64,000 nt of DNA, taken from the sequence record PQ615101; one strand, given 5' to 3'. A program made the position numbers and the translations under genes. The DNA is from Shigella phage SP21535. The notes under the pieces were generated by a model. It was given only the letters and a program-made list of their open reading frames with translations, was not told the DNA's origin and made no database searches. The first letter of the stretch is position 1. Each line of letters starts with the position of its first letter. This document shows, one piece after another, positions 48,714 through 53,178 of the stretch.

Positions 48714-48743
48714 GTTTACTTTTCCTCTTGACTGTGGTATAAT
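48714..48743 (+). promoter_or_regulatory. early promoter (GTTTAC ... TGgTATAAT)
   Basis: GTTTAC 48714-48719, TGGTATAAT 48735-48743, flanking inverted repeat. Confidence 0.55.
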
Positions 48744-49239: not shown

Positions 49240-49785
49240 ATGAGAAAAGCACTACTCGCTGGTCTATTGGCCATTTCAATGATGGCACATAGCTCCGAGC
49301 ATACTTTCAGTAATGTCCAACTCGATAACATGCGTTACGCGTATCAATTCGGGGAACAGTTTTCTAAGGATGGAAAATATAAAACACATAAAAATATCCA
49401 CAAGAGCGGATTAGGTTATATAATGGCTGCTATTTTATGGCAAGAAAGCTCTGGCGGAGTTAATTTAAAATCTAAACCAAAGCATCACGCTTACGGAATG
49501 TTCCAAAATTATTTGCCTACTATGCGAGCGAGAGTTAAGGAACTTGGTTATAATATGACCGATGCTGAAATAAAAAGAATGTTGAATAAACGATCCAATT
49601 CAGCTTCCTGGGCGTACATTGAACTTTCTTATTGGTTAAATATACATAAGGGCGATATAAGAAAAGCAATATCCTCTTATAATTCGGGATGGAATGTTAA
49701 AGCTGGTTCTAAATATGCTTCTGAAGTCCTAGAAAAGGCTAATTACCTTAAAAATAATAAACTTTTGGAAATAGTAAATGACTAA
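49240..49785 (+). CDS. secreted lytic transglycosylase-like protein (vs.1 position)
   Basis: Signal peptide; SLT-like motifs QESSGG, AYGMFQ, YNSG. Confidence 0.6.
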   Translation: MRKALLAGLLAISMMAHSSEHTFSNVQLDNMRYAYQFGEQFSKDGKYKTHKNIHKSGLGYIMAAILWQESSGGVNLKSKPKHHAYGMFQNYLPTMRARVKELGYNMTDAEIKRMLNKRSNSASWAYIELSYWLNIHKGDIRKAISSYNSGWNVKAGSKYASEVLEKANYLKNNKLLEIVND

Positions 49786-50125
49786 AATTTTGGTTTTATG
49801 TATAGGATTAATTTCATTTTCTGCTTCTGCGTCAGCAGATACATCATATACTGAAATTAGAGAATATGTAAATCGCACTGCGGCAGATTATTGTGGGAAA
49901 AATAAAGCATGCCAAGCTGAATTTGCGCAGAAATTAATATATGCATATAAAGACGGAGAAAGAGATAAATCAAGCAGATACAAAAACGATACATTATTAA
50001 AACGATATGCTAAAAAGTGGAATACCTTAGAATGTTCAGTTGCGGAGGAGAAAGATAAAGCCGCTTGTCATTCAATGGTTGACCGTTTGGTAGATTCTTA
50101 TAATCGAGGATTGAGTACTAGATGA
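49778..50125 (+). CDS. vs: valyl-tRNA synthetase modifier Vs (positional)
   Basis: 115 aa with N-terminal signal-like helix; gene order. Confidence 0.55.
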   Translation: MTKILVLCIGLISFSASASADTSYTEIREYVNRTAADYCGKNKACQAEFAQKLIYAYKDGERDKSSRYKNDTLLKRYAKKWNTLECSVAEEKDKAACHSMVDRLVDSYNRGLSTR

Positions 50126-50589
50126 TTGTAAAATATATCAAGGGCGATATTGTCGCCCTTTTCGCTGAAGGTAAAAATATTGCGCATGGATGCAATTGTT
50201 TTCATACTATGGGTTCAGGCGTAGCGGGTCAATTAACCAAAGCTTTCCCTAAAATTTTGGAAGCTGATAAATTACAGACTGAATGGGGTGATGTAACTAA
50301 ACTTGGTTCTTACTCAGTCTATGAAAAATACTTTAGGACTCATAAAGCGTATTGCTTCAACCTTTATACTCAATTTCAACCAGGGCCAAATTTTGAGTAT
50401 TCCGCTTTAATGAATTGTATGTTAGAATTAAATGAGTTTGGTGAAAATAAACTGATTAAACCTACAATCTATATGCCTAGGATTGGTGCAGGCATAGGTA
50501 AAGGGAACTGGGATATTATTGAGGGGATTTTAGATACATATTCCTCTAAATTAGAAATTGTGATTGTTGATTGGGAACCATTATTATGA
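50122..50589 (+). CDS. macro domain protein (tk.4 position)
   Basis: 155 aa; macro-domain-like glycine-rich stretches (GCNCFHTMGSGVAG, RIGAGIGKG). Confidence 0.6.
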   Translation: MIVKYIKGDIVALFAEGKNIAHGCNCFHTMGSGVAGQLTKAFPKILEADKLQTEWGDVTKLGSYSVYEKYFRTHKAYCFNLYTQFQPGPNFEYSALMNCMLELNEFGENKLIKPTIYMPRIGAGIGKGNWDIIEGILDTYSSKLEIVIVDWEPLL

Positions 50590-50798
50590 ATATACATTAT
50601 CCACATCCATATGACCCAAAGAATAAGGCAGTAATTATTCGTCAATGGGAACGCATTTGCCGTACTAAATGTCCAATTAATAGTCCACACGATGTAGATA
50701 AAGACTACATTGGAACATTCGTTGAATATACCTTTATTGATAGGAAAGGTCGTAAACAACATGTAGAAGAATATTGCTTAAAGGTTACATGGTTATGA
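50571..50798 (+). CDS. hypothetical protein
   Basis: 75-aa ORF. Confidence 0.4.
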   Translation: MGTIIMNIHYPHPYDPKNKAVIIRQWERICRTKCPINSPHDVDKDYIGTFVEYTFIDRKGRKQHVEEYCLKVTWL

Positions 50799-50980
50799 GT
50801 CTGAGTAAAGAACAAAAAGATAAATTGTTTGAGCTTATCCATGAACTTCTAGATGAGCATACAGAAGCAAACACCTTTTATGATGAATACGGCCCGCTAT
50901 CTCCCGAACAGCAAGAAGAATTTGCTGACCGGTTTGATAAGAAAGAAAACGAATTAATAGCTTATGTGAATACGCTTTAA
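50789..50980 (+). CDS. hypothetical protein
   Basis: ATG 50789 (track start 50774 is TTG). Confidence 0.4.
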   Translation: MVMSLSKEQKDKLFELIHELLDEHTEANTFYDEYGPLSPEQQEEFADRFDKKENELIAYVNTL

Positions 50981-50989
50981 GAAGGTGAT

Positions 50990-52519: not shown

Positions 52520-52543
52520 AGTCTCCTTCGGGAGACTTTTTTC
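52520..52543 (+). terminator. rho-independent terminator
   Basis: AGTCTCC-TTCG-GGAGACT followed by TTTTTT. Confidence 0.65.
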
Positions 52544-52610: not shown

Positions 52611-52799
52611 ATGAAAATTGAAGCACTTAATCAAGAAGGAAATATCTACGTCATCATTAATGGTGATTTTTTCGTCGACATGGATGAAGTTACCAGTGAA
52701 GAACTTGTAGAACTTCTTAAGAAACGTTATAATATGTGTGATGAAGTTGCAACTCACATGGCGTGTGCAATATTCTCTCTTTCATATGTGGTGGAATAA
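52611..52799 (+). CDS. small helical protein, tandem paralog 1
   Basis: ATG 52611 after GAGGAGAACATC. Confidence 0.45.
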
Positions 52800-52981
52800 T
52801 GATTAGTATCGAACAAGCAGATAAAATCAAGGAATTAGTGGCTTTAATTCGTAAAGCAGATGAGGAACGCATTAACTTTGCCTTATCAGGTATTGAAGAA
52901 TTTGAAGATAAAGTTAACAATGCTGTAGAAGCGTTAGATATGTTTCTTGATGAAATTATCGATCATAATACGAGAGTTTAA
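52799..52981 (+). CDS. small helical protein, tandem paralog 2
   Basis: ATG 52799 overlapping upstream stop. Confidence 0.45.
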   Translation: MISIEQADKIKELVALIRKADEERINFALSGIEEFEDKVNNAVEALDMFLDEIIDHNTRV

Positions 52982-52983
52982 GT

Positions 52984-53178
52984 ATGCTAACACGCGAACA
53001 GTTTGAAAAAATCATTAAATTAGCACGTGATATTGAAATAGATTCATATCAATTAGCAGTTGAGCATTGTGAAGGATATTCATACGACGGTATAGAAGCA
53101 GCTAAAAGGGATTTGGATAAATCCAAAGCTAAGTTAGTTCAATATCTTGAAATGATTAGGTGGAATAATGAAAACTGA
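52984..53178 (+). CDS. small helical protein, tandem paralog 3
   Basis: 64-aa ORF. Confidence 0.45.
   Translation: MLTREQFEKIIKLARDIEIDSYQLAVEHCEGYSYDGIEAAKRDLDKSKAKLVQYLEMIRWNNEN

Follow-up and report, generated by a model that had tools for sequence, protein, structure and literature searches.

Stand-alone macrodomain proteins raise the question of which ADP-ribose mark they recognize, and whether they erase it. In Shigella phage SP21535 (sequence record PQ615101), of which a stretch of 64,000 nucleotides was analysed (the window), this question is posed by a 155-aa open reading frame on the plus strand. A preliminary description of the sequence had noted two glycine-rich strings in the predicted product, proposed a macro domain, and guessed that a phage protein of this kind might reverse or read ADP-ribose marks set by host defence or by the ADP-ribosyltransferases of T-even phages themselves. 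We examined the identity of the gene, the fold and active site of its product, and the explanations that can be offered for its function.

Identity and genomic context of the gene

The ORF listing places the reading frame, from ATG to TGA, exactly at the interval given in Table 1. Its product is identical to Tk.4 of phage T4 (NP_049723.1) in all 155 residues. At the DNA level the two genes are 98.7% identical and all six differences are synonymous third-position changes, which indicates purifying selection. The order of the surrounding genes (regB, vs.1, vs, tk.4, tk.3, tk.2, tk, rI.1, rI, rI.-1) is also that of T4. Near-identical sequence together with the conserved place between vs and tk.3 puts the gene in the Tk.4 orthologue group. 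The ORF is tk.4, lately renamed adfM (anti-DarT factor macrodomain). The window comes from a T4 relative (Tequatrovirus, T4-type) and not from T4 itself: the tk.4 flanks are ca. 97.3% identical to T4 DNA, the genome ca. 97%, and the closest database phages, PD112 and IME537, share ca. 97% identity over 24 kb.

The gene itself is not new, although the preliminary description did not recognize it as this named T4 gene: its annotation as an A1pp/macro gene is long-standing, and an anti-DarTG2 role was reported in 2025. RefSeq describes T4 Tk.4 as 'phosphatase; contains A1pp phosphatase motif', and the GenBank labels of orthologues vary between 'macro domain protein', 'phosphatase', 'Poa1p-like family protein', 'ADP-ribose binding module protein' and 'hypothetical'. 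A tblastn search of 50,697 phage records detected homologues in 2750, which belong to many genera, and 220 records carry a copy of at least 95% identity. Macro domains in general have been reported in 41% of myoviruses (PMC9503650).

Table 1. Features of the tk.4 locus, with coordinates in the window.
Feature	Coordinates	Strand	Description
Sigma-70-like promoter candidate	48715..48743	+	TTTACT-17-TATAAT with TG; just before regB; best match upstream of the block; consensus only
vs	49778..50125	+	Valyl-tRNA synthetase modifier, 115 aa; upstream; stop overlaps tk.4 start (ATGA); same order and overlap in T4
tk.4 / adfM CDS	50122..50589	+	155 aa, stand-alone macrodomain protein
Codons G8-D9 of 'KGD' motif	50143..50148	+	Opposite TARG1 VKGD20 motif (profile alignment)
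Loop 1, substrate-binding	50185..50229	+	H22-G-C-N25-C-F-H-T29-M-G-S-G33-V-A35-G36
N80-L-Y82-T83-Q84 motif	50359..50373	+	End of strand beta 75-84
Loop 2, diphosphate-binding	50476..50511	+	P119-R-I121-G122-A-G124-I-G126-K-G128-N-W130
tk.3	50586..50798	+	70 aa; downstream; start overlaps tk.4 stop (ATGA)
Terminator-like hairpin and T-run	52520..52537	+	First on the + strand downstream of tk.4, after rI.-1; consensus only

The ATGA overlaps at both ends, which are the same in T4, place tk.4 within a tightly packed same-strand gene array; the downstream neighbor Tk.3 differs from its T4 counterpart in one of 70 residues. Transcription of tk.4 may start at the promoter match before regB, and the transcription unit may end at the hairpin after rI.-1, both sites being predicted by consensus. 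The promoter scan returned 19 sites as compared to 21.6 expected from shuffled sequence. Without an excess of sites the match is weak evidence, and the scan says little on expression timing. Within the tk.4 CDS, 18 nt from its beginning, a perfect 9-bp-stem hairpin (AAGGGCGAT-ATT-GTCGCCCTT, RNA ΔG ca. −13.4 kcal/mol) covers codons 7-13 (KGDIVAL) at 50140-50160. The T4 copy is identical, and when the minus strand is read the hairpin also scored as a terminator-like element. Chance may explain it, or it may influence translation or the stability of the mRNA.

Other parts of the array showed further features. T4 carries tk.2 and tk.1 between tk.3 and tk, where the window has 135 bp in place of 312 bp, with flanks that are ca. 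97% identical. A single tk.2-like gene occurs here at 50795-50989, and its 61-aa product shares only 54% identity with T4 Tk.2. There is no tk.1. Tk.1 and Tk.2 of T4 are weak paralogues of each other (30% identity). Two small adjoining ORFs at 52763-53178 (72 and 64 aa) have an N-terminal '..EQ..KI..L' pattern resembling the start of Tk.1/Tk.2 (M..(S/T)(K/R)EQK), a likeness which suggests a family of small, paralogous early proteins with members at scattered loci. Upstream, the counterpart of T4 vs.1 (49240-49785, 181 aa; a hypothetical protein in RefSeq) has a hydrophobic, signal-peptide-like N-terminus, MRKALLAGLLAISMMAHS. According to the passages of a HIDEN-SEQ preprint cited here, vs is the T4 gene most strongly depleted in minimal medium relative to LB (bioRxiv 10.1101/2025.11.20.689424).

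Fold and class of Tk.4

Both glycine-rich strings were found in the product, at residues 23-36 and 120-128, and correspond to loops 1 and 2 of a macrodomain. The Pfam Macro profile PF01661 matches residues 22-132 (profile positions 2-113 of 118) with 27.7 bits against a gathering cut-off of 22 (E = 2.9e-6), and PHROG 335 matches with E = 1.3e-65. For more sensitive comparisons 203 homologues were collected, 108 of which, down to ca. 33% identity, were aligned (alignment A1). When the A1 profile was compared to the PDB it matched BT1257 (1.9e-19), TARG1 (3.5e-16), SCO6735 (4.4e-15), Poa1p (2.8e-14) and Mycobacterium tuberculosis DarG (7e-14). A structure predicted by AlphaFold2 from A1 had a pLDDT of 95.8 and a pTM of 0.91. 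Each of the best 50 Foldseek matches was a macrodomain or a protein design based on one, and TARG1 ranked first (E = 1.9e-10).

The predicted structure has the three-layer α/β/α macro fold, and the putative ADP-ribose cleft is lined by conserved loop 1, with an Asn followed by a Gly-rich segment, and loop 2, with the GxG...G pattern. The macro domain of the preliminary description, a proposal that was to fall if no macro fold was predicted, is thus borne out with high confidence by Pfam, PDB profile matches, AlphaFold2 and Foldseek alike. The nearest neighbors in both structure and sequence are of the ALC1-like class and not of the MacroD, viral, PARG or macroH2A types. Tk.4 is a stand-alone macrodomain of the ALC1-like class, which includes TARG1, DarG, SCO6735 and Poa1p.

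Active-site residues

Eight columns of A1 do not vary at all: G33, A35, Y82, Q84, P119, I121, G122 and G124. Others are nearly invariant, among them H22, G23, C24, N25, C26, M30, D49, N80, T83, G128 and W130. In loop 1, conservation is 95% or higher at residues H22 to C26 and at M30, with N25 present in 107 of the 108 sequences. The motif at the end of the central strand has Y82 and Q84 in all 108, N80 in 107 and T83 in 106. In loop 2, G128 (101 of 108) and W130 are at least 93% conserved. Near the N-terminus, G8 occurs in 103 sequences, and position 9 is Asp in 80 and Asn in 28; the equivalent motif of TARG1 contacts the adenine, and G8-D9 may have the same role.

To assign catalytic positions, the TARG1 sequence was verified against its PDB chains and aligned to the A1 profile with both DarG macrodomains. 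Profile-to-sequence alignments were used instead of a three-sequence MAFFT alignment of Tk.4, TARG1 and PhiKZ gp104, in which the central region was misaligned. In three independent alignments, T83-Q84 of Tk.4 is opposite the T-K of TARG1, M. tuberculosis DarG and T. aquaticus DarG, while in the BT1257 alignment it is opposite G-Q. The catalytic lysine of TARG1 (K84) and DarG (K80) is replaced by a glutamine in Tk.4, and this glutamine is invariant in the family. Loop 2 aligns with 'MPRIGCGLDRLQW' of TARG1 and 'PPLGxGNGGLxW' of DarG. At the position of Asp125, the partner in the TARG1 catalytic dyad, Tk.4 has G126; in A1 this column is divided between Ala (80 sequences) and Gly (28). With Q84 at the lysine position and G126 at the Asp125 position, Tk.4 lacks the catalytic residues of the lysine-type enzymes. 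The lysine-to-glutamine substitution goes beyond what is described in the cited passages of the preprint.

The same residues group Tk.4 with the glutamine-type macrodomains. Q84, N25 and H22 align with Gln, Asn and His of BT1257, the latter two within its 'THICN' motif. They correspond to Q85, N27 and H24 of SCO6735, an equivalence obtained via the BT1257, TARG1 and DarG alignments and a structure-based statement in the SCO6735 study (PMC9411070). N25 is also opposite N23 of PhiKZ gp104, and H22 and T29 are opposite H23 and S30 of Poa1p. Just after the Gln motif BT1257 has an insertion of six residues relative to the Tk.4 family profile. The mobile loop with Lys89 and Lys94 is not present in Tk.4, whose loop has the TARG1 length and aligns with it without gaps.

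Comparison with characterized macrodomains

The glutamine-type proteins SCO6735 from Streptomyces coelicolor (PDB 5E3B) and BT1257 (PDB 2FG1/2AFC) are 54% identical to each other. Both share with Tk.4 the Gln at the catalytic-lysine position but their identity to Tk.4 is only ca. 25-29%, and their mobile loop with the two lysines is 5-6 residues longer. The HGCNC motif of Tk.4, in turn, is specific to its family, and both cysteines in it are nearly invariant. Furthermore, SCO6735 is a cellular, DNA-damage-regulated protein, whereas Tk.4 is a phage counter-defence gene product. Gln85 of SCO6735 is structurally equivalent to TARG1 K84 and DarG K80. On DNA with DarT-made thymidine-ADP-ribose SCO6735 is a faster hydrolase than either DarG or TARG1, and cells exposed to DarT are rescued by it. 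The Q85A and Q85E variants were dead and N27S nearly so, both His24 and Asn27 having been mutagenized. A water-mediated, lysine-independent mechanism was proposed, with Gln85 contacting the ring oxygen of the distal ribose and the mobile loop (Lys89, Lys94) helping DNA binding (all PMC9411070).

Human TARG1/OARD1 (PDB 4J5R/4J5S), the top Foldseek match, also removes dT-ADPr from DNA. Its alignment with Tk.4 is almost ungapped and the numbering nearly the same, but its K84/D125 dyad is Q84/G126 in Tk.4. Yeast Poa1p, an ADP-ribose-1''-phosphate phosphatase (PDB 6LFQ-6LFU), has the loop 1 nearest to that of Tk.4 (HSCNC...S30 versus HGCNC...T29), H23 and S30 being the positions at which deposited Poa1p structures carry mutations. 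It differs from Tk.4 in being ca. 25 residues longer and in having Ser rather than Gln near the catalytic position, and it is known for its small-molecule substrates.

DarG, the antitoxin of DarTG2 (PDB 5M31/5M3E/5M3I/7OMU), carries Lys80 where Tk.4 has Gln84. The NCBIfam DarG model NF048014 gave 30.3 bits with Tk.4 against a cut-off of 250 and matched only positions 2-146 of 338; the PADLOC DarG model gave 36 bits over positions 2-145 of 329. No darT adjoins tk.4, its neighbors being vs and tk.3. We considered and rejected an orphan DarG antitoxin: the catalytic lysine, the C-terminal domain and darT linkage are all missing, and the score is below the NF048014 cut-off. Two distant homologues labelled as bacterial MAG proteins (P0072, Bacilli; P0118, Culicoidibacterales) turned out to be located on T4-like phage contigs (L002, 344-3739; L003, 5001-5480). 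No darT was found near either one, the neighbors being T4-like phage genes. On L002 the macro gene immediately precedes a Dda/UvrD-like helicase gene; the RNA ligase 1 gene is located two genes before the macro gene, and Pnkp is also close by. On L003 a Pfam SLT (lytic transglycosylase) gene is found two genes downstream of the macro gene.

Published function and the two AdfM proteins

A need for tk.4 on DarTG2 hosts is documented for T4. In the cited passages of a preprint of November 2025, a HIDEN-SEQ transposon library of T4 grown on DarTG2-expressing E. coli gave tk.4 as the single significant hit, depleted specifically there, and a clean knockout made T4 sensitive to DarTG2 (bioRxiv 10.1101/2025.11.20.689424). 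These passages also note structural similarity of Tk.4 to the M. tuberculosis DarG macrodomain and introduce the name adfM; enzymatic removal of ADP-ribose from DNA is described there as something that only 'seems likely'. T4 lacking adfA and adfN had been found to remain DarTG2-resistant, and a further factor was predicted (Nat Commun 2025, PMC11825919). The tk.4 result, as given in the preprint passages, fills this gap. The same phage already provides a precedent for enzymatic erasure of DarT-made DNA ADP-ribosylation in AdfN (gene 30.3, NADAR domain; PMC11825919), but AdfN has an unrelated fold, acts on DarT1 guanosine adducts and does not counter DarTG2. In the literature searched we found no biochemical assay of Tk.4 itself, and the CmdTAC paper (PMC11618068) contains nothing on Tk.4, with macrodomains named in its reference list only.

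The name AdfM was also given, independently, to gp104 of phage PhiKZ (Cell Rep 2026, PMC13309987), so that in the sources cited it denotes both a Gln-type and a Lys-type protein. At its submission, no macrodomain Adf had yet been reported according to that study. Like Tk.4, gp104 is a phage-encoded stand-alone macrodomain that counters DarTG2. It strips DarT2-made ADP-ribose from DNA in vitro, and its conserved loop-1 Asn is important, N23A lowering the activity (PMC13309987). Unlike Tk.4, gp104 is of the lysine type ('FPTKDNW') and DarG-like (E = 9.4e-25 to M. tuberculosis DarG), and it is imported into the phage nucleus. A BLASTP comparison of the two proteins aligned only 23 residues (E = 0.005), which means that they are essentially unrelated at the BLAST level. 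The two AdfM proteins are different kinds of ALC1-like macrodomain, and judged by their sequences they appear to be independent recruitments under one name.

Proposed mechanism and alternative explanations

We consider it likely that Tk.4 hydrolyses DarT2-made thymidine-ADP-ribose on phage single-stranded DNA in a glutamine-assisted, lysine-independent manner. During infection the host toxin DarT2 would put ADP-ribose on thymidines of single-stranded phage DNA, by which replication would be blocked. The Tk.4 cleft formed by loop 1 (H22-G36) and loop 2 (P119-W130) would bind the ADP-ribose moiety, and the enzyme would then cut the N-glycosidic bond between ribose and thymine, giving unmodified DNA and free ADP-ribose. 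Q84, held by the conserved Asn25, would position the distal ribose while water supplies the chemistry, as proposed for SCO6735. With an invariant Gln84 and a Gly at the TARG1 Asp125 position, catalysis by Tk.4 is probably lysine-independent like that of SCO6735. We infer ADP-ribose binding, hydrolase activity on ADP-ribosylated DNA and the role of Q84 from these comparisons. Several points count against the hydrolase model: the canonical catalytic lysine is absent, as is the 5-6-residue longer mobile loop, loop 1 (HxCNC) most resembles that of Poa1p, and the T4 genetics, to date in preprint form, bear on hydrolysis indirectly.

The lack of the canonical Lys and Asp would also fit non-catalytic protection, in which Tk.4 binds and inhibits DarT2 directly or acts as a 'reader' that shields ADP-ribosylated DNA. 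Inactive SCO6735 Q85A, DarG K80A and TARG1 K84A all inhibit DarT in vitro, with SCO6735 the strongest (PMC9411070). Because even dead SCO6735 is inhibitory, the protection by Tk.4 need not be purely hydrolytic. However, the catalytic residues of SCO6735 (Gln, Asn, His and the loop glycines) are invariant or nearly so in the 108 homologues, down to the ca. 33% identity limit, a pattern expected of an enzyme. Moreover, Tk.4 consists of a macrodomain only, 155 aa without the DarG C-terminal domain that binds DarT, and stoichiometric binding of lesions would not restore replication. A wholly non-catalytic role is therefore unlikely in our view. The similarity to Poa1p and the historical RefSeq phosphatase label raise another explanation, namely that Tk.4 is mainly a small-molecule enzyme, an ADP-ribose-1''-phosphate phosphatase or O-acetyl-ADP-ribose deacetylase that clears soluble derivatives from RNA repair or host NAD+-based immunity. 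The shared HxCNC motif and the H23 and S30 equivalents provide a lead only toward phosphatase activity. T4 Pnkp/Rnl1 repair is known to leave no 2'-phosphate, and hence no Appr>p or Appr-1''-p, and gene adjacency is weak as evidence in the dense early regions of T4-like phages. The sole tk.4 phenotype found, in the cited preprint passages, is specific to DarTG2, which is a DNA-modifying system (bioRxiv 10.1101/2025.11.20.689424). We regard a main role on small molecules as quite improbable; a side activity of this kind would be compatible with DNA hydrolysis.

T-even phages encode three ADP-ribosyltransferases, and Tk.4 might erase or tune the marks that the phage's own enzymes (Alt, ModA, ModB) set on host proteins or RNA. 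The residue modified by Alt and Mod is arginine, and cleavage of the arginine linkage is not reported for the macrodomains discussed in the literature cited here. The ALC1-like enzymes TARG1 and SCO6735 do act on protein-linked ADP-ribose as well (PMC9411070). Against such a role, tk.4 was the sole gene to reach significance on the DarTG2 host in the preprint passages, and its depletion was specific to DarTG2 (bioRxiv 10.1101/2025.11.20.689424). Homologues are spread over 2750 phage records of many genera, which may or may not encode transferases of the Alt/Mod type. We regard removal of the phage's own marks as the most improbable explanation. Hydrolysis of thymidine-ADP-ribose is the reading that we prefer, and the early guess that a phage macro domain reverses host-defence ADP-ribose marks agrees with the T4 tk.4 genetics on DarTG2 in the preprint passages (bioRxiv 10.1101/2025.11.20.689424).

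Implications

The anti-DarTG2 role itself having been reported, as the cited preprint passages show, what is added here is mechanistic: the AdfM of T4-type phages is of the glutamine type and not of the lysine type. Since the place of the catalytic DarG lysine is taken in Tk.4 by a glutamine, as in SCO6735, mutagenesis or inhibitor design modelled on DarG K80 would be misdirected. More tentatively, and with somewhat less than even confidence, we propose that Tk.4-type proteins form a third, phage-specific branch of ALC1-like macrodomains, recognizable by the motifs HGCNC and NLYTQ, by a mobile loop that is short and by two cysteines that hardly vary. Such a branch would carry out lysine-independent, Gln-assisted dT-ADPr removal from DNA, would stem from a recruitment separate from that of the lysine-type PhiKZ AdfM and not from the capture of a DarG antitoxin, and might in addition act, like Poa1p, on soluble derivatives of ADP-ribose. 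For the T-even phages, tk.4 is part of a layered anti-DarTG arsenal consisting of AdfA, AdfN and Tk.4/AdfM.
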